Source: Candidatus Dojkabacteria bacterium (GTDB lineage: Bacteria > Patescibacteriota > Dojkabacteria > SC72). From it: a DNA stretch of 64,000 bases. Location: NCBI GenBank assembly GCA_012513575.1, contig JAAZBX010000001.1:10163-74162 (forward strand), given 5' to 3'. The translations under genes and the position numbers were made by a program. Every line of letters begins with the position of its first letter. Positions within the stretch are counted from its first letter, which is position 1. Positions 21,477 through 32,674 of the stretch are shown one piece after another. Below the pieces are notes generated by a model. The model ran no database searches and was not told where the DNA came from. It saw only the letters and a program-made list of their open reading frames with translations.

Positions 21477-22496
21477 ATGTTAGGAAAGAAGCTTGGAATT
21501 GATTTAGGAACTGCAAATTCAGTTATTTTTGTCCAAGGGGAAGGAGTTGTCTTGACTGAACCTACAGTTGTTGCAATTGATTTAGATACTCGAACTGTTA
21601 TTGCGGTTGGGACGAAAGCAAAACAGATGATTGGTAAAACACCAGAGAATATTGTAGCTAGAAGACCATTAAGAGAGGGGGTAATCGCTGATTCAAGAAT
21701 TACTGAAGCTTTGTTAAGATATTTCTATGATAGAGCTTTAGGTAAATCTAGGTTGATAAAGCCGGATGTAGTAATTAGTGTACCTGCTGGTATAACGTCA
21801 GTAGAAGAGAGAGCTGTCCATAAGGCTGCTAATGCTGTTGGCTCTCGAACTGTGACTCTTCTTCCAGAACCTTTGCTTGCAGCTTTAGGTGCAGGCCTTC
21901 CAATTCACACATCGTCTGGAAACATGATTGTAAATATGGGTGGAGGAACTAGTGAGGTTGGAGTAATGTCCCTTGATGGGATAGTAGAATACGAATCTAT
22001 TAGGGTAGGTGGAGATGCTCTTAACGAATATATTATATCCTATATGAAGAAAAAGAAGGGAATTTTAATTGGAGAGCAAAGTGCGGAGAATATTAAGATT
22101 AAAATTGGTTCCGCTGTTGAAGTTAGAGATCCAAAAGAAATGGAAGTAAGAGGAAGAGATGTTGGCGCTGGAATGCCAAAATCCATTATGGTAGATTCAA
22201 ATGATATTGCCAAAGCAATAGAGTTTCCTTTGAAAAGAATCATATCTGCAATTAAAACAGTTTTAGAGAAGACTCCACCAGAGCTATCGGCTGATATTAT
22301 TGATAGGGGAATGGTCATGAGTGGTGGTACTGCGAAACTAAGGAATTTAGACAAACTTTTTTCTAGGGCTACTGGAGTTCCTTGCCATGTGGCTGATGAT
22401 CCATTGCTTTGTGTCGTAAAAGGAACAGGGATAGCACTTGAACTTCTTGCTACAGGGGAGAGGAAATTCTCGTTTAACAAAGAATTTAGACGATAG
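21477..22496 (+). CDS. mreB: actin-like rod-shape protein MreB (paralog 1)
   Basis: 'LGIDLGTANSVIFVQGEGVVLTEPTVVA' phosphate-1 motif. Full-length actin fold, 339 aa. Confidence 0.85.
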   Translation: MLGKKLGIDLGTANSVIFVQGEGVVLTEPTVVAIDLDTRTVIAVGTKAKQMIGKTPENIVARRPLREGVIADSRITEALLRYFYDRALGKSRLIKPDVVISVPAGITSVEERAVHKAANAVGSRTVTLLPEPLLAALGAGLPIHTSSGNMIVNMGGGTSEVGVMSLDGIVEYESIRVGGDALNEYIISYMKKKKGILIGEQSAENIKIKIGSAVEVRDPKEMEVRGRDVGAGMPKSIMVDSNDIAKAIEFPLKRIISAIKTVLEKTPPELSADIIDRGMVMSGGTAKLRNLDKLFSRATGVPCHVADDPLLCVVKGTGIALELLATGERKFSFNKEFRR

Positions 22497-22516: not shown

Positions 22517-23677
22517 ATGGGAATTTTAGATAAAAAAAAGAAAAGCATGACACTAGATGAGGTAAGTACAAAGTTGGAGGAACTTAGATTGCCTACAGCT
22601 TTAGTCTTTACGCCACTGAACCTAGAAGTAGAGAGAAAGAAATTTTTTAATTCCGATATATATAGCCCATATTTTAAATACAGGATAGTAAAAAACAGTA
22701 ATGAGAAAATTCTGCAAGAGCTTTCAAAGGTAGAAGAAATTTCAGATATTGATCCAAGGGTATCTCAATTCTATGTCGATTTGATTAAATCAAAAGGGCA
22801 GACAAATGAATTAATGAATGCAGTTGGGAATAATTTAAGAGTAAGTGAAATCTCAAAAGAAAGGTTTGGAATTCCCTCAGAGAAACTTTATAGAAATGCT
22901 TGCAGGGTTTTAAGAGGTACTTTCAATAATTATAAACTAATTAAAAATCCTTCTCTAAAGAAAGAACCTCTTCTTGATTTTAATGATATTGTGAATGTAT
23001 TTGATTTGGTTTTTGAAGAATTAGGGTTAAGTGATTGGCAAGTCTATAAGTCTCAAAATATGGCCAAAAACGGTATGAAGGTAGGTATTAAGAGAAAGCA
23101 GATTTTAGTTAACCCTGAGATCCACAAAAGTAGGTTTAAACTTAAGAAATCGATTGTTCATGAGGTGGGAACACATGTTCTTCGATCAATTAATGGGTTT
23201 AATACAAATTTTTCAGCATTGGGAAATGCTAATTTGCCAAGTTATTTAGATATTGAGGAAGGTTTGGCAACGTACAATGAGAGTGACATGGGTTTATTAA
23301 CAGAAACAGGTCTAAAAAAGAAGGCAGCATTGGTTTTTGCAATTAAAAATGGAGAGCAAATGACTTTTAGGGAATTGTACAACTGTTTGTTAGGAATTTT
23401 CCCCAAATATGCAGCTTTTGATATTGTATATCGTGTGAAGAGGGGACTTGCAGATACAGCAAAACCTGGAATTTATACCAAAGATATTGTTTATTTTAGG
23501 GGTTTTAGAAGAGTAAAAAACTCTTTAGAAAAAGATAACTCACTATACAACAAGCTGTATTCAGGTAAAATTAGTTTGAAACAGGTTTCTTGGGTAGAGG
23601 AGGGTTTGATTCCAAAAGCAAAAACGGTGCCTTCTAAAGAAATGTGGACCAAAATATTCAAGAAAGCAGGTTTGTAA
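22517..23677 (+). CDS. DUF1704 / 'QEGLA-motif' family protein (bacterial homolog of the MATCAP tyrosine carboxypeptidase family); putative zinc metallocarboxypeptidase
   Basis: 'HEVGTH' zinc-binding-like motif, then '(E)EGLATY', the family's QEGLA signature. About 386 aa, typical for the family. The assignment rests on motif recall, not a search. Confidence 0.6.
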   Translation: MGILDKKKKSMTLDEVSTKLEELRLPTALVFTPLNLEVERKKFFNSDIYSPYFKYRIVKNSNEKILQELSKVEEISDIDPRVSQFYVDLIKSKGQTNELMNAVGNNLRVSEISKERFGIPSEKLYRNACRVLRGTFNNYKLIKNPSLKKEPLLDFNDIVNVFDLVFEELGLSDWQVYKSQNMAKNGMKVGIKRKQILVNPEIHKSRFKLKKSIVHEVGTHVLRSINGFNTNFSALGNANLPSYLDIEEGLATYNESDMGLLTETGLKKKAALVFAIKNGEQMTFRELYNCLLGIFPKYAAFDIVYRVKRGLADTAKPGIYTKDIVYFRGFRRVKNSLEKDNSLYNKLYSGKISLKQVSWVEEGLIPKAKTVPSKEMWTKIFKKAGL

Positions 23678-24114: not shown

Positions 24115-25053
24115 TTATCTAAATGCTGTAATAATTGCTTCTGCAATATTTACTGGAGTACCCTCTATCTTTGTTTCGTATGCTTTAAATCCAGGGTGGA
24201 AACTAAACTCTTGTACTGCAAGCTTGTTGTTAATATACATAAAATCTACAGCTATAAAATCCGCATTAAGTATGGTAGCCACTTTTTCAGCCATCTCTTT
24301 CATCTCCCTATTGGGTTGATTATACATTTCGTATATTCCCTTACTTACCGTCATGAAGCTATCATTTGCTATTCTTTTCCAGCCACCAATAACCTTACCT
24401 AGTTTTACAAATACTCTGTAATCTTCACCTGTATCAGAAAATTCTTGGATAAAGAAATTTCTATAGTCCCTCTCTCTTAATTCGTCTTCATTATTAATTT
24501 TGAAAACATTCTTCTTAATAACTTCTTTCCCTTCTTTAATTTCAATTCTATTAGCCCCTGTATATTCTTTAATGATCAAAGGAAAATTATTAAGAACTTT
24601 TCTTCTGGTTAAGTAATCTCCATCAGTTCTAAAGTAAGAATTGAAGTAGGGTATATTATTTTTTATACAGAATTGAGCTATTGCAATTTTATTGTAGTAT
24701 GGGAACTTCTTTATTGCTTCAGCATTTTGAACAAAAATCTTTTTGGAAGGGTTTTCTTTGTTATATTCATCTATGAAGTCAATAATGTATCTCTTATAGT
24801 GATACTCCTTTTCATTTTCAAGAGAGTGCCCACGAAAAAGAATATGAGAATAGTCAGAGATAGGGTTGCTATCAGCGAATATTTTCATTTTCCCATCTTG
24901 GAAGACAAATTCTAATTGATCATTAAAGATGAAATCATTTTCAATATTTTTCTTTTTGAGTTCTTCTACTATCCTCTTAGATGCAGTAGGGATTTCTTTC
25001 TCTCCGATTCTAGGTCTTTTGTCGATGATTAAATACCTCATATATTTATACAA
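24115..25053 (-). CDS. ATP-grasp family ligase (312 aa)
   Basis: ATP-grasp motifs 'PLIIKEYTGANRIEI', 'FIQEF...GEDYRVFVKLGKVIGGWKR' and 'ADFIAVDFMYINNKLAVQEFSFHPGF'. Its start overlaps the upstream gene by 8 nt. Confidence 0.65.
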   Translation of the reverse strand: MYKYMRYLIIDKRPRIGEKEIPTASKRIVEELKKKNIENDFIFNDQLEFVFQDGKMKIFADSNPISDYSHILFRGHSLENEKEYHYKRYIIDFIDEYNKENPSKKIFVQNAEAIKKFPYYNKIAIAQFCIKNNIPYFNSYFRTDGDYLTRRKVLNNFPLIIKEYTGANRIEIKEGKEVIKKNVFKINNEDELRERDYRNFFIQEFSDTGEDYRVFVKLGKVIGGWKRIANDSFMTVSKGIYEMYNQPNREMKEMAEKVATILNADFIAVDFMYINNKLAVQEFSFHPGFKAYETKIEGTPVNIAEAIITAFR

Positions 25054-26749
25054 TTTTTATTTTATTTATAAACCTTTTTGTTTTATATCTCTTAACAATC
25101 TTCATTTCATCTTTCTCTGCTTCATCTTTACTTATGATTAACAAATCAATGTTGTTAAAACCCAAGCCATCACTCTTTACTGCATCCCAATCTCTGTGAT
25201 GAACGATTATTCCGTCCAAAGAGGCATTAACCTTAAGAGCTTCCAAAGCTTTCCATTTCTCAAGGCCATCATTAATTTCTAACCCATTTATTCTCATATA
25301 TCCATCTTTGTACTCTCCAATTACATCTTTCTTTGAGAAATATGATCCCCAGAGACTTTTCTCACTAAGAAGTGTTAATATGTCAGGGAGAGTATTTCCT
25401 ATAGCAACAATTTTTTTTGTTTGATTCTCTTTAAGTAGTTTCTCTACAAATGTCTTTACTACATATTCTCTCTCTTCTCCCAAAACAGGGAAGAAATTTA
25501 AATATGCTTCAGGCATGGTATTAACTTCTAATATTGCACCATTCTCTTTTGTTAGAGGCTTACTAATGTCTTTACATAGAACATCTACACCAAGAGTAAA
25601 CGCATGTATAGAGGAGGCAATACTTTCAACCACATACTTAATTTCATCAGACACTTCATCAGTAAAATCCTCTGTGATTCCTCCTTTACTCATACTAGCT
25701 ACCTTTCTGACAGGGATTTTTTCATTTAATTTTGGGATGTAATCTAAAGAGAGATTTTGTTGCTCCAAATGGTCTATGAGGGATTCATCAATTACAATGG
25801 GTTTTAATGTGTGTACTGGGCTAGAGGTGTCCCTTTTTGGATCTTTGTTTGTTTCATTAATTAATTTTTTTATAGAATTTTTTCCATCTCCAATTATGAA
25901 AGCAGGAATTCTTTTTGTTGCAATCTCAAGTTTCCCATCTATAACAAGGAGCCTGTAATCTTCTCCGGGGACCTGTTCTTGGATCATTATCTTTTTTTGC
26001 CATTCCTCTCTTGGTTTCTCATTTACAGACTTTTGTGCAAATTCAAATGCTTTTTTAGCTTCATCAAGAGTATTTAATCCAACCACAACACCGTTCCCCC
26101 CAGTAAGGCCTGTTGGCTTAATTACAACTGGTTTTGCAAAATCAGACCATATTTCCTCTAATTGATTTTTGTTCTCAATTGTTTGCCATTTAGGTATAGG
26201 AAGACCTAATCTAGAGATCATTAAGTTTGTAGACCATTTATCTTTTTGAATCTCTTTGGCGTTTTTGGAATCCTTACTTGATGATATGGAATAGATAATT
26301 TGGGAACCTTTTCCACAACCGAGCGTGTGATGTCTGTTATATGTTTTGGGATATCCGGATTTATTAGTTTGAATAATTGCTTGATCAAGCAGGGTAGGTG
26401 TAATCTCATAGCCAAGGTCGTATGCAGTATTCAATATTGGGATTGTGGACATGGAAGCGACCCTTTGTTTAATTAGTTGATCTACAAGAAGCTCTTTACA
26501 TTTTTCAAATGAAATTTGTGAACAACCCAATTGTTGTAAGTAATCATTTGCTTCTCTCCAAAGAAATGGAATTTTTGTTTCAATATAAAGGTAACCTTGG
26601 GTAAAATAGTATTTTTCAATAAAAAGAGGATGATAATTTTTTACTAAATCTAAAATCTTTTTTACTGAATCGTCCTCATTTACTTCAATAATTACGGTTG
26701 AGTAGGGCGATATTAAGTTTAATCCTTGCAACACTTGTGCTTTCTTCAT
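25046..26749 (-). CDS. cyanophycin synthetase-like protein with CphA N-domain and ATP-grasp G-domain but no Mur-ligase (M) domain (567 aa)
   Basis: The N-terminus 'MKKAQVLQGLNLISPYSTVIIEVNEDD' resembles the CphA N-terminus. G-domain motifs 'VVIKPTGLTGGNGVVVG', 'EDYRLLVIDGKLEIATKRIPAFIIGDGKNSIKKLINETNKDPKR', 'GVDVLCKDISKP..ILEVN'. The C-terminal roughly 130 aa lack the GxxGKT of Mur ligases. Confidence 0.65.
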   Translation of the reverse strand: MKKAQVLQGLNLISPYSTVIIEVNEDDSVKKILDLVKNYHPLFIEKYYFTQGYLYIETKIPFLWREANDYLQQLGCSQISFEKCKELLVDQLIKQRVASMSTIPILNTAYDLGYEITPTLLDQAIIQTNKSGYPKTYNRHHTLGCGKGSQIIYSISSSKDSKNAKEIQKDKWSTNLMISRLGLPIPKWQTIENKNQLEEIWSDFAKPVVIKPTGLTGGNGVVVGLNTLDEAKKAFEFAQKSVNEKPREEWQKKIMIQEQVPGEDYRLLVIDGKLEIATKRIPAFIIGDGKNSIKKLINETNKDPKRDTSSPVHTLKPIVIDESLIDHLEQQNLSLDYIPKLNEKIPVRKVASMSKGGITEDFTDEVSDEIKYVVESIASSIHAFTLGVDVLCKDISKPLTKENGAILEVNTMPEAYLNFFPVLGEEREYVVKTFVEKLLKENQTKKIVAIGNTLPDILTLLSEKSLWGSYFSKKDVIGEYKDGYMRINGLEINDGLEKWKALEALKVNASLDGIIVHHRDWDAVKSDGLGFNNIDLLIISKDEAEKDEMKIVKRYKTKRFINKIKIV

Positions 26750-26761
26750 TCTTCTTAGATA

Positions 26762-27751
26762 TTAACTTAAATATTTATCTCGGATGTATTCCATTATAGG
26801 TACAGCTACCTCTGTCTTTTGCCCTTTATCAACTTTGTAGTGTAACCTAAGCCCAGGGTTGTAGTTTACCTCGTTAATTGCACATTTGCTGGGTTTGGAG
26901 ATATTTTCTGCGATAATATCAACTCCTCCAAATTCCGTATCTAGTGCTTTTATAGCTCTTATTGCAAGTTGATTGTAAAAATCATTTACCTCACTTTGAC
27001 ATTCTTCTGTCGTACCACCAGTTGTTAAATTACAATTATACCTAAGTATTACTTCTTCGTCTTTTTGTGGAATTGATTCTAAATTCATGTTATTTCTTTG
27101 TAATTTAAGGACAAGTTCGTTGTCGATTACTATCGGAAGCATTATATTCTTTTTTCTCTCTTCGTTTTTCAATTCTATGAGTTTTCTTATTGAATTCTCT
27201 CCATTTCCGACAATATGTGCGGCCTTTCTTCTAACGACACCAATCACTTTCTCTCCAAGGACTAAGAACCTGTAATTATCACCTTGAACGAATTCTTCTC
27301 CGATTACCTTTTTACTATCATCTGGATTATGTGATAGGTTAAACGCATTTTTGTAAGCATTAAGAACTTGCTCCTCGCTTTGTGGTAAAAGAGAAACGCC
27401 TTTTCCTCCTAATTGTTGTGAGGGTTTAATTACTATATTTTTATAGTTATGAAAGAATTTTATTGCATCAATCTCGCATGCTAGAATTTCTTGTTTTGGT
27501 ACAGGTATTCCATTTTTTTCTAATACCATATGAGTAAGATTTTTTCTTTTACAAATTGTAGTACTTGGAGTTGGAACTAGGGGAGTGACAGTATTGATAA
27601 TATACCAATGTTTGTTTTTAATTTTAAATTCTGCCATTAATCCTGGAACTAATACATGATATTCAATCCCCAGCTTATAAGCTGCTTCAATGTAGTAGGA
27701 GAGATGGATATTTCCTGCTTCTTTTAAAAAATTTTTTTCCCCCTCTGTCAT
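26762..27751 (-). CDS. cyanophycin synthetase G-domain-like ATP-grasp ligase (329 aa, stand-alone)
   Basis: 'VIKPSQQLGGKGVSL', 'DNYRFLVLGEKVIGVVRRKAAHIVGNGENSIRKLIELKNEERKK', 'GVDIIAENISKPSKCAINEVNYNPG'. Confidence 0.65.
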   Translation of the reverse strand: MTEGEKNFLKEAGNIHLSYYIEAAYKLGIEYHVLVPGLMAEFKIKNKHWYIINTVTPLVPTPSTTICKRKNLTHMVLEKNGIPVPKQEILACEIDAIKFFHNYKNIVIKPSQQLGGKGVSLLPQSEEQVLNAYKNAFNLSHNPDDSKKVIGEEFVQGDNYRFLVLGEKVIGVVRRKAAHIVGNGENSIRKLIELKNEERKKNIMLPIVIDNELVLKLQRNNMNLESIPQKDEEVILRYNCNLTTGGTTEECQSEVNDFYNQLAIRAIKALDTEFGGVDIIAENISKPSKCAINEVNYNPGLRLHYKVDKGQKTEVAVPIMEYIRDKYLS

Positions 27752-27768
27752 TTGGTAAATATTTAATA

Positions 27769-29223
27769 TTAATTACTGAATGTTTTACTTGTATCTATTA
27801 AATACCCTTTCAATACTTCTCGACCAATTATTAGATGATAATCTGAATTCTCAATTATTACCACTTCAATATCTTTTATCTCGCCAGAGATTTTCACTTT
27901 AATATCAACAACTGGACGGACTTTGACATCTTCGCCATCAACAATTTTCGCAACTCTTTTGATATTCTCTTCCAAAGTTAATGCTTTTAAATGAGTATCA
28001 ATATATTCCTGAGCCTCTTTAATAGAGTTGAACTTTCTTGGAACATTTAGAGAATTAAAATATTGTGTAGTAGCTAAAAAACCAACTCTGTTAGCAAAAG
28101 TCTCTGACATTCTTGAAGTAAGTACCCCAGTATCCATAAAAGCACGGCCAGATTCTTTTTCGGGCTCTTTCTTCTTTGTTTTGTTTTGGTGAAAGACCAT
28201 TACTTTCTCATCAATTGTAACAACCTTTCTACCACTTATTGTTTCAATACTTTCTTCAACCTCCCCGCCAAAAAGACTCTTTGCTAATCTGATCCCATGT
28301 TTAATATTTTTTACTTCCACATCCTTAACTTTCTCTAGCCTCCATCTAAGTCCTGCTTTATTTGCGACTTGTATTCCAAGCCCAGGTCTTGCGTTAAGTT
28401 CAAAGACAATTGGTCCGTGTTCGGCATCTAGCGCGATATCTACACCAATGTATCCTAATTTTGATACTCTTTGACACTTTAGAGCGATTTCAAGAATTGA
28501 GTCCCATTCAGGTATATGAATTCCGCTTAAAATTTTGTTTTCCTTAAGATCCTGTGTTGTATCGATATCCTCATATGTGTCACTAAAAGGGGAGTTAGTA
28601 TCCATTTGCATAGAATAGGTAGTAATGCCAGTAGCAATATCAATTCCAGTACAAATAGCTCCAGAATGAAGATTTGCGGTACCATTAGACCTTTTTGTCG
28701 GAATTCTTGTCATTGCCATTATGGGTACGCCGTTAAAGCATATTACTCGGATATCTGGGACTCCCTTGTAAGAATACTGTTTAAGTAATGGAGCGGTCTT
28801 CACTCTTTCTTCAATAATAGCAATATCTTTTCGATTTCCCATCGAAAATCTTCCATCTAAGATGTTTTCTATATGAAGGATGATGTCATTTCTTGTCATA
28901 ATATCACCATTTGGTCTAATCCATGCATACTGTCCTTTCTTTTTCCCATAGAAAACAATTATGCCGTTGCCTCCAGTTCCTTGATTTGGCTTAATTACAA
29001 AGCTCTTTGGGAGAGAATCCCAGTCTATGAATTTAAGTTGTTGTTTGTTCCTAATTAATTTGTATACCTCAGGAGTCTTAATATTCTCTTTAGCTAGAAC
29101 CTTTTTTGTCAGAATTTTATTATCCGCAATCCTTTTAGCTGATGGAGGATTAAAAGGTCGAATGTATTCCTGGTTCCTTCTATTTAAACCCAAAATGTTC
29201 TTATACTTACTTCTTTGTGTCAT
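27769..29223 (-). CDS. RimK-related alpha-L-glutamate-ligase-like ATP-grasp enzyme fused to a C-terminal RimB-like retropepsin-type ('ATP-dependent Zn protease', DUF785-like) domain
   Basis: N-terminal 'ILGLNRRNQEYIRPFNPPSAKRIADNKILTKK' is the hallmark start of the alpha-L-glutamate-ligase-like family. ATP-grasp core 'FVIKPNQGTGGNGI', 'GVPDIRVICFNGVPIMAMTRI', 'YIGVDIALDAEHGPIVFELNARPG'. C-terminal domain with 'FMDTGVLTS' (D-T-G) and 'EVVIIENSDYHLIIGREVLKGYLID'. Confidence 0.7.
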   Translation of the reverse strand: MTQRSKYKNILGLNRRNQEYIRPFNPPSAKRIADNKILTKKVLAKENIKTPEVYKLIRNKQQLKFIDWDSLPKSFVIKPNQGTGGNGIIVFYGKKKGQYAWIRPNGDIMTRNDIILHIENILDGRFSMGNRKDIAIIEERVKTAPLLKQYSYKGVPDIRVICFNGVPIMAMTRIPTKRSNGTANLHSGAICTGIDIATGITTYSMQMDTNSPFSDTYEDIDTTQDLKENKILSGIHIPEWDSILEIALKCQRVSKLGYIGVDIALDAEHGPIVFELNARPGLGIQVANKAGLRWRLEKVKDVEVKNIKHGIRLAKSLFGGEVEESIETISGRKVVTIDEKVMVFHQNKTKKKEPEKESGRAFMDTGVLTSRMSETFANRVGFLATTQYFNSLNVPRKFNSIKEAQEYIDTHLKALTLEENIKRVAKIVDGEDVKVRPVVDIKVKISGEIKDIEVVIIENSDYHLIIGREVLKGYLIDTSKTFSN

Positions 29224-29872
29224 TTTCCTTAATTACAGATTTAAATCGAAAGTAGTCTTTGAGCCTTAATCCTTTAAATTGGCCAATAATTAAGTTGGCA
29301 AAGATTAATAACGGGATAAGCCACAAATTATTAATAACATAATTTGAAATGTAATCTCGAGTAATTACAAACCATCCAGCTGTGGCAATTAATACTGTTC
29401 CAAATAGTGCAGTAAATGAAGACTTACTTGATTTTTGTACAAATTGTTTAGTAAAGAAATCAGAAAGTGCGGCTATTGAAATTAACGCTAGAGGTGGGAC
29501 AGTGGACATATTTTCTAAGCCCAGACCCAACTCATCAATTAGTATAATAAAGGAAACTAAAGCGATGCTTAAAAGACAGTAGTTAATTGCAATTCTTGTA
29601 ATATAGTGCATTCTAATCTTCTTAAGTACCAGGTGGGAAAGTAATGATACTGTTATCACCATAAAAGTTATTGCCAATCCGTATTTTAAGCCAGTATAAG
29701 AATAGGCAATTGCAAGTAAAATAGGAGCATAAATCCCATATGATTTAGTCCCAAAAAGATATCTGAATATACTTACAATAGTTGCAACAATTGTAATAGC
29801 TAAAAAAAGCTCTAATGTTTTTTCGGGCACTCCATGTTCTAATATCCACTGAGTAAAAGTAGAGTAGTACAT
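29207..29872 (-). CDS. 7-TM integral membrane protein, first gene of the ATP-grasp operon
   Basis: Seven hydrophobic helices counted by eye. Overlaps the next gene by 17 nt. The position matches the 7TM partner of RimK-like/QEGLA cassettes but no transglutaminase domain is present. Confidence 0.55.
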   Translation of the reverse strand: MYYSTFTQWILEHGVPEKTLELFLAITIVATIVSIFRYLFGTKSYGIYAPILLAIAYSYTGLKYGLAITFMVITVSLLSHLVLKKIRMHYITRIAINYCLLSIALVSFIILIDELGLGLENMSTVPPLALISIAALSDFFTKQFVQKSSKSSFTALFGTVLIATAGWFVITRDYISNYVINNLWLIPLLIFANLIIGQFKGLRLKDYFRFKSVIKENDTKK

Positions 29873-30040
29873 TTCAGAAAATTAAAAAATTAGATATAAA
29901 TTGTAAGGCAGATTCAACACATGAATTATACCATTTTTGTACTGTTAGTACTAGATTTCCCAGCTTTTTTTAGTGCTACATTTCATTATTGTTAATTTCA
30001 GTTTTACTAAGTAGAAAGGGTAGAATATAATCATTGATAT

Positions 30041-31135
30041 ATGAAAAAAGTATTAATAGTAATTGGGGATGCAGGTGCGGGTCATCTTTCCTGCGCAAAC
30101 GCAACAAGGAATGCAATAAAAAAGCTGGATAGTACAATTTCTGTTGAAATAATTGATATTTTTCAGTTTTCTAAAATGTCTAGATTGTATAATTTTGTTC
30201 AGTATTTAGTTAGTGGTTCAAAATTAATAGAATTTCTTTTCAACACATCATTTACATTAATAAATAAGTCAAAGTTTTGTAGTGAATTAGCCTATTTTTT
30301 TGCTCTAAGTCCAATTGTAAAACCCACTTTGAAATATCTTCGAGAGTACAATCCTGATTTAGTGATCTCAAACAATGCACTAACAACGGAGGTTCTTAGT
30401 AGGTGCAAAAAAGAATTCCAATTCAAATACGTCATAACTGTTCCAGATTTAGTTACTATGGTGAGATGGTGGGCAAGCTCTGAGGCTGATCTGATTTTTT
30501 CTCCAACAGAAAAAGCTACGGAAGAATTACTTTCCTTTAATCCTAATTGTAATATCCTTACCGGGTATTATCCGTTAAGAGATATAAAAGAATTCTCTGA
30601 GGAAGAGATACATGATTTTAGGAAAATTTTTTGTAAGGAACATGACTTTGAATTCGAAAGAGATATTATTCTGATTACTGGATGCGGAGTGTCCACAGCG
30701 GGTTTAGTGAGGCGACTTAAAAGTTTTATTTTAAATACAAATTATCAATTAATTATTTTGACTGGTAAGGATACAAAATTAAAAAGGAGATTGGAGAAGA
30801 GATTCCAAAGGAACAAAAGGGTATATATCTCAGGTTATACAAATGAAATTCTAAAATTATTTGTAATATCAGACCTAATTATTTCAAAAACGGGTCCTGC
30901 TACCGTTTTAGAAATAGAGAAAGTAAACAAAAAAGCAATATTTACCGAACCCCCAGTTATTCAAGAGTTTGGTAACGTTGAGTATATTAAAGATAATCCC
31001 AATTTTAGTTATATAGGGTCTAATTATGAGAAATTACCAGAATTAGTAGAGAGAATGTTAGTAAAAGATACAATTAAATACCAAAGCGAGATTAAAGATG
31101 CTAACTCAATAGCAAACATTATCCTAAAGTTGTAA
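30041..31135 (+). CDS. glycosyltransferase, MurG / MGDG-synthase-like (GT28-type)
   Basis: N-terminal 'KVLIVIGDAGAGHLSCANA', like the G-loop of MurG/MGDG synthases, and a C-terminal Rossmann half. Divergent from the ATP-grasp operon. Confidence 0.6.
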   Translation: MKKVLIVIGDAGAGHLSCANATRNAIKKLDSTISVEIIDIFQFSKMSRLYNFVQYLVSGSKLIEFLFNTSFTLINKSKFCSELAYFFALSPIVKPTLKYLREYNPDLVISNNALTTEVLSRCKKEFQFKYVITVPDLVTMVRWWASSEADLIFSPTEKATEELLSFNPNCNILTGYYPLRDIKEFSEEEIHDFRKIFCKEHDFEFERDIILITGCGVSTAGLVRRLKSFILNTNYQLIILTGKDTKLKRRLEKRFQRNKRVYISGYTNEILKLFVISDLIISKTGPATVLEIEKVNKKAIFTEPPVIQEFGNVEYIKDNPNFSYIGSNYEKLPELVERMLVKDTIKYQSEIKDANSIANIILKL

Positions 31136-31240: not shown

Positions 31241-32674
31241 ATGAGTTTTAGGAAAAACTTGGAATACCTTAGAAAGGGTAAAAAACTTTCACAGGAGGAG
31301 TTGGCTAACAGGCTGAATGTTTCTAGGCAATCAGTATCTAAATGGGAGTCGGGTGGTGCTTATCCTGAGACAGAAAAAATGCTTGTAATGTGTAAAATTT
31401 TTGATTGTTCTCTTGATCAGTTGATGAATGATGATATTGCTGAGATAGAGAAGAGTGAGGCTAGAAAATATACCTTTAACGATTTACTAAATGAATTTAC
31501 AAAAATTATTAGAGGTACTATTGATATGTTAGGCTCAATGAATACGAAGTCAGTCATTAAATTCCTTTTTGAAATAGGTTTGTTATTTTTAATTATTTTG
31601 TTATTAAATATTCCATTCTCATATATTAGCAGTATTGGCTCTTCTTTCTTCTATAGCTTTGGTACAACAGCTGGTGGAATCCTTTCAGGATTCTGGGAGT
31701 TTTTGACAAAAATAGTATATCTTGTAGTTGCGGTTTTAACCTTTGCTTATATCTATAAGATAAGATTTATTGATAAATTTCATAGTATACAAGAGGAAGT
31801 AGAGAAGGAAAAAGAGCATTCTGTTGAAAAACAAGTAATTAGAGAGAAAGAAGTAGTTAAGAATATTGAAGTAAAAAAATATGACTTTGGACTTTTCTCT
31901 CTAATTGGGAGATTTGCCATGGCCTTTGTAAAATGTTTTGTTTTCTTCATTTCAATGCCTATTGTTTTTCTCCTATTTTGTTCTTCAGCCGGGGTTTTAA
32001 TAGGTATTGTCTGGATGTTTAGTGGAATCTTTTATTTAGGTATTATCGTTTTCCTTCTTTCTTTTATACTTTTTGCTGTGTCATTACTGAAAGCTTTTTA
32101 CAATTTTATTGTAGATAACAGGACAAATTGGAAGAAACTCTTTGTTGTGTTTATGATTTCAATCATAGGTTTGGGAGTTGGAGCTGGAATTTCTTTCTTG
32201 GATTTCTCAAAATTAACGATAAACTCAAAAGCTCCTAGCAGAGTAGTTGCTAATAAAGAAATTGGGGAGTATCCCATGAGTGAAAACTTGGTACTTTTTA
32301 ATTACGGTCTGGGTGGCACTCAATCTGCATATTATGAAGTTGATGATTCATTAGTAGGCACTGTAAGGATAGAAGTGGAATATTACAGAATGTTTTCAAA
32401 ACCAATAATTACAATTTCAGAATCTGAGGAGGGAAGGGTGATTAATGTATTCAATGAAGGAGAATCAAGTGTAAATTTAAGTAAAATATATAAAATATTT
32501 TTAGATGATTTAAAACACTATACTCTCTCAAACTATTCTGAATTAGGAGGTTTTCAGGTAAATGTGTATTCAAGTAAAGAAAATATTGAAAAAATGCAAA
32601 ATAATTTCTTTTTAGCAATTAATGAAACAGAAGTACAACCAGAGGTAATCGAAGATTTTCCTGAGAATCTATAA
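31241..32674 (+). CDS. XRE-family HTH transcriptional regulator fused to a polytopic membrane domain and a C-terminal extracytoplasmic domain
   Basis: HTH_3 'LRKGKKLSQEELANRLNVSRQSVSKWESGGAYPETEKMLVMCKIFDCSLDQLM', followed by at least five TM helices. Confidence 0.75.
   Translation: MSFRKNLEYLRKGKKLSQEELANRLNVSRQSVSKWESGGAYPETEKMLVMCKIFDCSLDQLMNDDIAEIEKSEARKYTFNDLLNEFTKIIRGTIDMLGSMNTKSVIKFLFEIGLLFLIILLLNIPFSYISSIGSSFFYSFGTTAGGILSGFWEFLTKIVYLVVAVLTFAYIYKIRFIDKFHSIQEEVEKEKEHSVEKQVIREKEVVKNIEVKKYDFGLFSLIGRFAMAFVKCFVFFISMPIVFLLFCSSAGVLIGIVWMFSGIFYLGIIVFLLSFILFAVSLLKAFYNFIVDNRTNWKKLFVVFMISIIGLGVGAGISFLDFSKLTINSKAPSRVVANKEIGEYPMSENLVLFNYGLGGTQSAYYEVDDSLVGTVRIEVEYYRMFSKPIITISESEEGRVINVFNEGESSVNLSKIYKIFLDDLKHYTLSNYSELGGFQVNVYSSKENIEKMQNNFFLAINETEVQPEVIEDFPENL

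Follow-up and report, generated by a model that had tools for sequence, protein, structure and literature searches.

The 64,000-nucleotide stretch of Candidatus Dojkabacteria bacterium DNA analyzed here (the window; GenBank assembly GCA_012513575.1, contig JAAZBX010000001.1, positions 10,163 to 74,162) carries at 27769..29223 on the minus strand a gene in which an ATP-grasp ligase of the RloC type is followed, within one polypeptide, by an acidic junction and a retropepsin-like domain of family PF05618 (DUF785). Encoding the ligase together with a usually separate peptidase as one protein argues for a single physical unit by which an acidic peptide tail or polymer is both built and trimmed. 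We favor, at somewhat better than even confidence, a bifunctional cytoplasmic enzyme that combines an RloC-type ligase with a retropepsin-like peptidase and represents a compact, covalently coupled variant of the rloABC system. An earlier note on this DNA had proposed that an alpha-L-glutamate-ligase-like ATP-grasp enzyme is here naturally and covalently fused to a retropepsin-type domain of DUF785/PF05618, and this is borne out by profile searches, by the predicted fold and by the comparison of related loci. The same note took RimK-RimB as the nearest system. This part did not hold, the RloA-RloB-RloC system being closer, as shown by an overlapping upstream gene for a seven-transmembrane (7TM) protein of the 7TM_transglut family.

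The gene is a single unbroken open reading frame (ORF) from ATG to stop, encoding 484 residues. Among about 5.8 billion proteins searched, full-length homologues of 483-497 residues were found in more than 120 clusters, 66-99% identical over the entire query; the named ones belong to Candidatus Dojkabacteria (candidate division WS6, Patescibacteria/Candidate Phyla Radiation). The identical 484-residue protein is recorded on 17 contigs, one of them 451 kb in length. For comparison of gene content, gene order and domain identity, 80 related loci from species-level Dojkabacteria-type genomes were used. In each of the 80, the C-terminal half follows the N-terminal half without a break and in the same frame, and the fusion is therefore not an artefact of gene calling or assembly. 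Statements of invariance below rest on an alignment of 23 homologues, and variants of the DTG motif were counted over 120 close clusters. It should be mentioned that many of the cluster-bearing genomes (loci L001-L080) are titled 'uncultured Candidatus Saccharibacteria bacterium'; these loci share 60-90% identity and a common gene order with the Dojkabacteria-titled ones, and the titles look like generic or wrong labels. The combination of PF14397 and PF05618 is present in the precomputed Pfam annotation of a few metagenomic relatives, and in the Dojkabacteria homologues the C-terminal domain is unannotated. Our literature searches found no paper describing the fusion, outside the 2009 work of Iyer et al., in which the association of an ATP-grasp ligase, an inactive-transglutaminase-7TM protein and a peptidase is reported to have been first predicted and which the searches did not cover.

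The ligase domain comprises residues 1-318 (28270..29223, minus strand). Family PF14397 (ATPgrasp_ST) is matched with 223.4 bits against a gathering cut-off of 31.4 (4.3e-66), residues 15-300 covering model positions 1-277 of 278. The hypothetical equivalog TIGR02291, 'alpha-L-glutamate ligase-like protein', is by far the top-scoring model for this part, despite a score of 292.4 bits over residues 5-301 that falls narrowly under its cut-off of 314.2. The RimK-related layout described in the earlier note stands as far as the ATP-grasp family is concerned and fails for RimK proper: PF08443 scores 50.8 bits, and the RimK-specific models are well under their cut-offs (TIGR00768, 61 bits versus 143.4; PRK10446, 19.9 versus 331). 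In place of Pseudomonas RloC, a presumed member of TIGR02291, the canonical comparator was an operon on a Legionella adelaidensis plasmid (L088), found by a tblastn search against plasmids. Residues 4-318 of the window protein align with residues 7-312 of the 314-residue Legionella ligase (WP_058463117) at 40% identity (E = 2e-74), and the stand-alone ligase ends at L317-F318 of the window protein. Because of this end-to-end alignment, the ligase part is regarded as complete and of the RloC type. Its sequence places it outside RimK, in the paralogous PF14397/TIGR02291 group, whose type is encoded by the third gene in rloABC-type operons. The ligase looks catalytically competent, since K78, E138, E139, D262, E275 and N277, which we take from general knowledge of ATP-grasp enzymes to be the ATP- and Mg-binding residues, are all invariant.

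Residues 332-484 (27772..28230, minus strand) form the second domain. Both strings quoted earlier are present in it, FMDTGVLTS at residues 362-370 and EVVIIENSDYHLIIGREVLKGYLID at residues 453-477. A Pfam scan, suggested at that time as a check for both families, gave a clear match for PF14397 and a score below cut-off for PF05618. All sub-threshold family matches of the domain belong to the aspartic-peptidase clan AA (PF05618, PF09668, PF13650, PF13975), and PF05618 is matched, again sub-threshold, by 19 of the 23 homologues. A single-sequence search of the C-terminal 154 residues against the sequences of the Protein Data Bank (PDB) gave marginal matches to RloA (E 0.04-0.08), so that profiles were needed. 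The profile of the Dojkabacteria domain (A2), run against 1.84 billion representatives, found only 93 clusters, including distant fusions of 465-511 residues at E 1e-11 to 1e-18. Five of the ten distant fusions scanned (P0132, P0135, P0141, P0164 and P0172) pass the gathering cut-off of PF05618 with 29-37 bits, over nearly the whole model and alongside PF14397. A wider profile, with the window sequence among its members (A3), reaches the solved structures of RloA (PDB code: 9g58, 1.5e-10), RloA2 (9g59, 4.2e-10) and the DUF785 protein Lpg0085 (2pma, 6e-7), as well as many stand-alone PF05618 proteins at 1e-8 to 1e-24. Alignment of A2 to the Legionella RloA-type protein with hhalign yielded a probability of 84.7% (E = 6.7e-6, 113 columns). 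The expected relationship to DUF785 and retropepsin profiles is therefore found at the profile level, and the fold agrees with it.

The AlphaFold2 model of the C-terminal domain has a mean predicted local distance difference test score (pLDDT) of 80 overall and of ~90 in the core, and it adopts a retropepsin fold. In a Foldseek search of the PDB with this model, all of the 50 best matches are retropepsin folds with a probability of 1.00 each, among them the RVP domains of Ddi1, RloA, RloA2, the HIV-1 and EIAV proteases, Rickettsia APRc and Lpg0085. A helical insertion keeps the TM-scores modest (0.33-0.46 by query length): two helices follow the DTG strand (residues ~374-391 and ~401-415), where RloA-type proteins have beta structure. 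This insertion is common to all Patescibacteria relatives, fused or stand-alone. From profile and fold evidence, we assign the C-terminal domain to PF05618, termed 'RimB-like' in newer Pfam annotation, as a divergent retropepsin-like domain of the RimB/RloA type. A hidden Markov model of the domain found no second copy in the 64-kb window.

The candidate catalytic motif, D364-T365-G366, is encoded at 28126..28134 (minus strand). An isolated three-residue DTG is no more than chance. Here it is meaningful because it is conserved, is aligned with the catalytic DTG of RloA and lies within a predicted retropepsin fold. D364 and T365 are invariant, and the complete DTG is present in ~113 of the 120 close clusters, the others having DTS (three times), DTT, DTA, DTV or NTG; the conservation anticipated earlier is thus largely found (~94%), short of strict invariance at the third position and at the Asp. 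Asn occupies the place of the catalytic Asp in that one NTG cluster and in the 501-residue protein P0126 (INTG). The NTG, INTG, DTS, DTT, DTA and DTV forms may be inactive variants or sequencing errors. In every alignment D364-T365-G366 falls on the catalytic DTG of RloA, within AK(L/M)DTGA in 9g58 and 9g59, and the distant fusions mostly have the classical AK(I/V)D(T/S)GA signature. RPV (residues 436-438) is retained and aligns with RPV of the same two RloA chains. The homologues also preserve the G(R/K) that precedes L471, a position with GS or GT in RloA, and R371, five residues after DTG, is invariant. It is noted that K46, R114 and R137 of RloA have been proposed to bind substrate Glu (PMC12239564); on partial alignments with these three positions, F362 stands at K46, while R436 of the RP motif and a basic residue in G-R467...L-K472 are kept. 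From these features the peptidase is probably active but specialized, and a purely regulatory domain is a real minority possibility.

The membrane partner is encoded directly upstream, at 29207..29872 (minus strand), and its gene overlaps the fusion gene by 17 bases. The 221-residue product is the membrane half of RloB. It matches PF14402 with 71 bits (cut-off 25), covers positions 312-508 only of the RloB model NF052267, and corresponds to residues 309-505 of the 508-residue Legionella RloB-type protein (BLASTP, E = 3e-10). The transglutaminase-like half is absent, PF14400 not being matched. In 71 of the 80 Dojkabacteria loci the fusion is immediately preceded by a gene of this family, as it is in all seven distant Patescibacteria loci, where the two usually overlap. 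An AAGGA ribosome-binding site is located 2 bases before the ATG of the fusion, within the end of the 7TM gene, and the fusion gene is predicted to be translationally coupled to it.

In the mechanism that we propose, the ligase would spend ATP to add acidic residues, most likely alpha-linked glutamate, to an acceptor that could be a peptide, a protein tail or a polymer, and it would probably do so while bound to the 7TM protein on the membrane's inner face. The C-terminal domains of two subunits would pair to create an active site with two aspartates, and the paired site would trim or cut the Glu-rich product and/or tune the ligase allosterically. Trimming and/or tuning are proposed because RimB does both to RimK and RloA counteracts RloB and RloC genetically. 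The retropepsin-like endopeptidase RimB is dimeric; it cleaves poly-Glu and also binds RimK, whose ATPase activity and poly-Glu output it raises or lowers (PMC11957791, PMC10092738). The lethal or morphological defects of mutants without any RloA paralogue are suppressed by deletion of rloB or rloC (PMC12239564), which implies that RloA has to process something made by RloB and RloC. The fusion would ensure a 1:1 stoichiometry and the co-localization of builder and trimmer, and it suggests that the peptidase can act on the cytoplasmic side. The obligate functional coupling of ligase and peptidase proposed earlier appears reasonable.

Several observations weigh against this mechanism. PF05618 scores 17.4 bits on the full-length window protein and 20.2 bits on the domain alone, under a cut-off of 27, and the NCBIfam models RloA1, RloA2 and RloA3 (NF052262-4) score 15-18 bits (E ~1e-3) under cut-offs of 210-280. 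A changed third position or Asn for Asp occurs in ~6% of the close clusters, besides INTG in P0126. At the position of RloA K46, two residues before the Asp, stands F362, which is nearly invariant in Dojkabacteria, and the residue after DTG, a small Ala in RloA, is Val, Ile or Leu. Across the 80 loci, identity is 40-90% in the peptidase domain and 75-94% in the ligase domain; the former is thus evolving much faster. Pseudomonas RloA is secreted, whereas the fused form would be cytoplasmic, a different compartment. No RloC-type enzyme has a published substrate (PMC12239564), and neither the amino acid ligated nor its acceptor is indicated by any result here. The distant fusion P0164 (688 residues, L092:1159-3225) has a third, YdjC-like domain (PF04794, 126.6 bits) after its ligase and peptidase domains. 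YdjC-like proteins are carbohydrate deacetylases, and a sugar-containing acceptor is hinted at by this domain. PF14397 was originally associated with sugar-transfer contexts; given these contexts and the YdjC relative, the acceptor could be a glycoconjugate.

Some of the same features would suit a domain that is not an active peptidase and serves as a dimerization, poly-acidic-chain-binding or allosteric module regulating the ligase, an alternative that we regard as unlikely and still the most serious one. It draws on the third position of DTG, which varies to S, T, A or V, on NTG and INTG in single lineages, on the Phe in place of K46 and the bulky residue after DTG, and on the fast divergence of the domain relative to the ligase. 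It is also consistent with the change in RimK ATPase activity caused by the binding of RimB (PMC10092738). However, the Asp and the Thr are kept in >98% of homologues across a wide divergence, which would be unexpected for a purely structural element, the full AK(I/V)DTGA signature is present in more distant fusions, and the GR and RP motifs of retropepsins are kept.

The junction between the domains bears on a second alternative. It consists of residues 319-331, GGEVEESIETISG (28231..28269, minus strand), and it starts where the stand-alone RloC-type protein of Legionella exactly ends (the position of residue 318). Nine of the 14 positions from F318 to G331 are invariant (F318, G319, G320, E321, E323, I326, E327, S330 and G331). 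The motif LFGGE(I/V)E.E(I/V)E occurs in 9 of 12 distant Patescibacteria fusions and in none of the stand-alone RloC-type proteins. With a mean pLDDT of 53 for residues 321-330 in the full-length AlphaFold2 model, the junction is predicted to be flexible, and it may act as a hinge, as a pseudo-substrate or as a site of self-cleavage. The last possibility would make the fusion a precursor like the retroviral polyproteins, in which a cut within LFGG-E-V-E-E-S-I-E frees a RimB/RloA-like peptidase and exposes on the ligase a C-terminus ending in Glu, itself perhaps an acceptor. Retropepsins classically release themselves, and an acidic segment that is invariant yet predicted to be flexible, begins at the end of the stand-alone ligase and is kept in distant fusions would fit such a site, as would the specificity of the partner peptidase family for Glu runs (PMC12239564, PMC11957791). 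We nevertheless consider a precursor improbable. Cleavage by RloA requires 8 or more consecutive Glu, runs of 6 or fewer being left uncut (PMC12239564), whereas the junction has only 4 Glu in 7 residues, and the motif could equally serve as a hinge or docking segment.

Slightly more doubtful still is the reading as a RimK-RimB fusion in the true sense, with ribosomal protein S6 as the target of both glutamylation and deglutamylation. The ligase is distantly related to RimK, as the PF08443 score indicates, the cluster adjoins the L10-L7/L12 ribosomal genes in 56 of the 80 loci, and a cytoplasmic location fits RimB and not the secreted RloA. On the other hand, the RimK-specific models remain far under their cut-offs, the top full-length match of the ligase is of the RloC type, and the invariant 7TM_transglut partner marks rlo and not rim loci (PMC12239564). 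The adjacency to ribosomal genes is found in none of the distant loci and may be the conserved gene order of one lineage. A C-terminal region that is not homologous to retropepsins and has its DTG by chance, to which the sub-threshold single-sequence scores alone might point, is already refuted by the transitive profile links (E 1e-10 to 1e-18), by distant fusions above the PF05618 cut-off over nearly the whole model, by a retropepsin fold in 50 of the 50 best structural matches and by the superposition of DTG on the DTG of RloA, and we give it almost no weight.

The bifunctional enzyme that we favor is encoded within a cluster of five genes, present in the same order in 68-79 of the 80 Dojkabacteria loci, with shortfalls mostly at contig ends. 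After a gap of 17 bases, the fusion gene is followed by a gene for a 329-residue ATP-grasp ligase (26762..27751, minus strand) that resembles the G domain of cyanophycin synthetase and the GshB half of GshAB; it matches TIGR02068 at 3e-60 over model positions 166-470 of 862, far under the cut-off, and has the same position in 79 of the 80 loci. The next gene, 12 bases further on (25046..26749, minus strand; 76 of the 80 loci), encodes a second ATP-grasp ligase like the cyanophycin synthetase G domain, of 567 residues with extra N- and C-terminal regions, matched by PRK14016 and TIGR02068 at ~2e-69 over residues 140-450. The last one (24115..25053, minus strand; 68 of the 80 loci) overlaps the 567-residue gene by 8 bases at its start. 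Its product is a RimK-like ATP-grasp protein of 312 residues (308 in public gene calls), with 36 bits for PF08443 (cut-off 21) and 52 bits for TIGR00768 (cut-off 143). The fusion gene and the three following ATP-grasp genes are predicted to be co-transcribed. Four ATP-grasp ligases are thereby found in one operon of a very small genome (the fusion and 24115-27751, minus strand).

A putative metallocarboxypeptidase of the MATCAP/DUF1704/QEGLA family (386 residues; 22517..23677, plus strand) is a possible accessory. It matches PF08014 with 107.7 bits (cut-off 27) and TIGR02421 with 123 bits, below its cut-off. The gene comes immediately after mreB (21477-22496) and converges on the cluster, next to which it is found in 60 of the 80 loci; in an unrelated Patescibacteria locus (L085:12553-13848), a gene of this family is co-directional inside the cluster. 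With this protein, the system may possess a second 'eraser' peptidase. Beyond the core, gene content varies among the seven distant Patescibacteria loci, which include one Kerfeldbacteria genome (L084), and additional ATP-grasp genes are found in L085, L086, L087 and L092. In two loci (L084:6418-9883 and L091:5454-6968) the 7TM protein has N-terminal PKD domains and no inactive transglutaminase domain, and in L084 a separate stand-alone 158-residue RimB-like gene comes after the fusion gene. The invariant core is composed of the 7TM protein, the ligase and the peptidase, with two different pairs fused in different lineages.

It is conceivable, though improbable in our view, that the 7TM protein, the ligase-retropepsin fusion, up to three further ATP-grasp ligases and the MATCAP-family carboxypeptidase form in Patescibacteria a self-contained, reversible 'peptide-tailing' machine, in which the ligases write a tail and two unrelated peptidases erase it. 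If so, the module would be a bacterial counterpart of the tubulin code, acting on a protein or envelope acceptor, and the enzyme would be switched between states by the conserved Glu-rich junction, serving as an inbuilt pseudo-substrate or as a site of self-cleavage.

Other genes and signals near the cluster were considered as well. None of the five cluster proteins matched the PADLOC defense models, and a defense-system reading was dropped on this ground. Two ORFs downstream of the cluster, of 122 and 90 residues, have no family matches and were rejected as parts of the system; the 122-residue one has no tblastn match in the 80 related loci. Divergent from the cluster are genes for a GT28-type glycosyltransferase similar to monogalactosyldiacylglycerol synthase (30041-31135, plus strand) and for a 477-residue protein with an N-terminal Cro/C1-type helix-turn-helix and a long hydrophobic region (31241-32674, plus strand). 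Adjacent in only 7-10 of the 80 loci, they are probably unrelated and were rejected as components. A scan for sigma-70 promoters and terminators performed no better than on shuffled sequence. An extended -10-like element, TGGTATAAT (29925-29933, minus strand), is located ~50 bases upstream of the start of the 7TM gene. It has no -35 match and for that reason was not reported by the scan; it could be the operon promoter.

The three-component core occurs in more than one fused form. In addition to the ligase-peptidase fusion, an unannotated ORF of 584 residues on the Halobacterium sp. DL1 plasmid CP007061 (L089:3185-4939, record positions 106092-107846) joins PF14402 (86 bits) to PF14397 (202 bits). 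Following the Rosetta-stone argument, these two independent fusions suggest that the 7TM protein, the ligase and the peptidase act on the same molecule in physical contact. In Pseudomonas, the product of RloC and the physiological substrate of RloA are still open (PMC12239564), hence the value of the fusion, a minimal single-polypeptide form of the system, as a handle for finding the ligase product and the cleavage specificity. The five-gene cluster with its four ATP-grasp ligases is kept across very small Patescibacteria genomes, and this retention points to an unrecognized, probably important peptide-based modification or polymer in these bacteria.

We have compared the fusion and its cluster with several known systems. 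In the tyrosination and glutamylation cycle of tubulin, ATP-grasp ligases of the TTL/TTLL type add residues to the tail, and MATCAP and other carboxypeptidases remove them. ATP-grasp ligases are likewise accompanied here by a MATCAP-family gene, beside the cluster or, in L085, inside it; the resemblance is one of logic and not of family, and a protein acceptor is without support here. The two middle ligases resemble the G domain of cyanophycin synthetase (CphA1), which polymerizes a poly-amino-acid backbone. However, its N and M (Mur-ligase-like) domains are missing from both, and with scores well short of the family cut-offs they were rejected as cyanophycin synthetases. The Halobacterium ORF is a fusion event within the same three-component system; it differs in that the 7TM protein is joined to the ligase, in its archaeal host and in the absence of a peptidase domain from the ORF.

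The RimK-RimB(-RimA) module that modifies S6 (PMC11957791, PMC10092738, PMC7343187) similarly combines a cytoplasmic ATP-grasp Glu ligase with a PF05618 endopeptidase, and the fusion would turn the non-covalent ligase-peptidase complex of Pseudomonas into a covalent one. In contrast to that module, the ligase here is no RimK orthologue, a membrane partner is present, RimA is absent, and a link of the fusion to S6 is without support.

The closest likeness is to rloABC. The Legionella locus encodes a 152-residue PF05618 protein (annotated as 'RimK/LysX family protein'), a 508-residue protein with PF14400 and PF14402, and the 314-residue PF14397 ligase ('alpha-L-glutamate ligase-like protein'). 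This arrangement of PF05618 peptidase, inactive-transglutaminase-7TM protein and ligase is that of rloA-rloB-rloC in Pseudomonas (Lormand et al., mBio 2025, PMC12239564), where rlo controls hypo-osmotic survival, biofilm formation, cell shape and beta-lactam tolerance (PMC12239564). The Dojkabacteria genes share with it the PF05618 peptidase, the PF14402 7TM protein and the PF14397/TIGR02291 ligase, adjacent and translationally coupled. The peptidase is at the C-terminus of the ligase here, whereas RloA is a separate protein with a signal peptide; the order is 7TM protein and then ligase-peptidase instead of peptidase, RloB and ligase. Further differences are the absence of the ~300-residue inactive transglutaminase domain from the RloB-like protein, the two-helix insertion in the peptidase and its lack of the Lys before DTG, and the three additional ATP-grasp ligase genes that follow. 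The hosts also differ, being Patescibacteria (Dojkabacteria) here, while RloB matches were reported to be 96% from Proteobacteria (PMC12239564). In the annotated Legionella RloA-type protein (L088:1999-2457) the peptidase domain (MANNEKIIYGFIEKA...) stands at the very start, with no obvious signal peptide before it; this start may be misannotated, or the compartment may vary among rlo-type systems. Overall, the fusion is a fused, truncated and rearranged variant of the rloABC type, with a topology that works like RimK-RimB.

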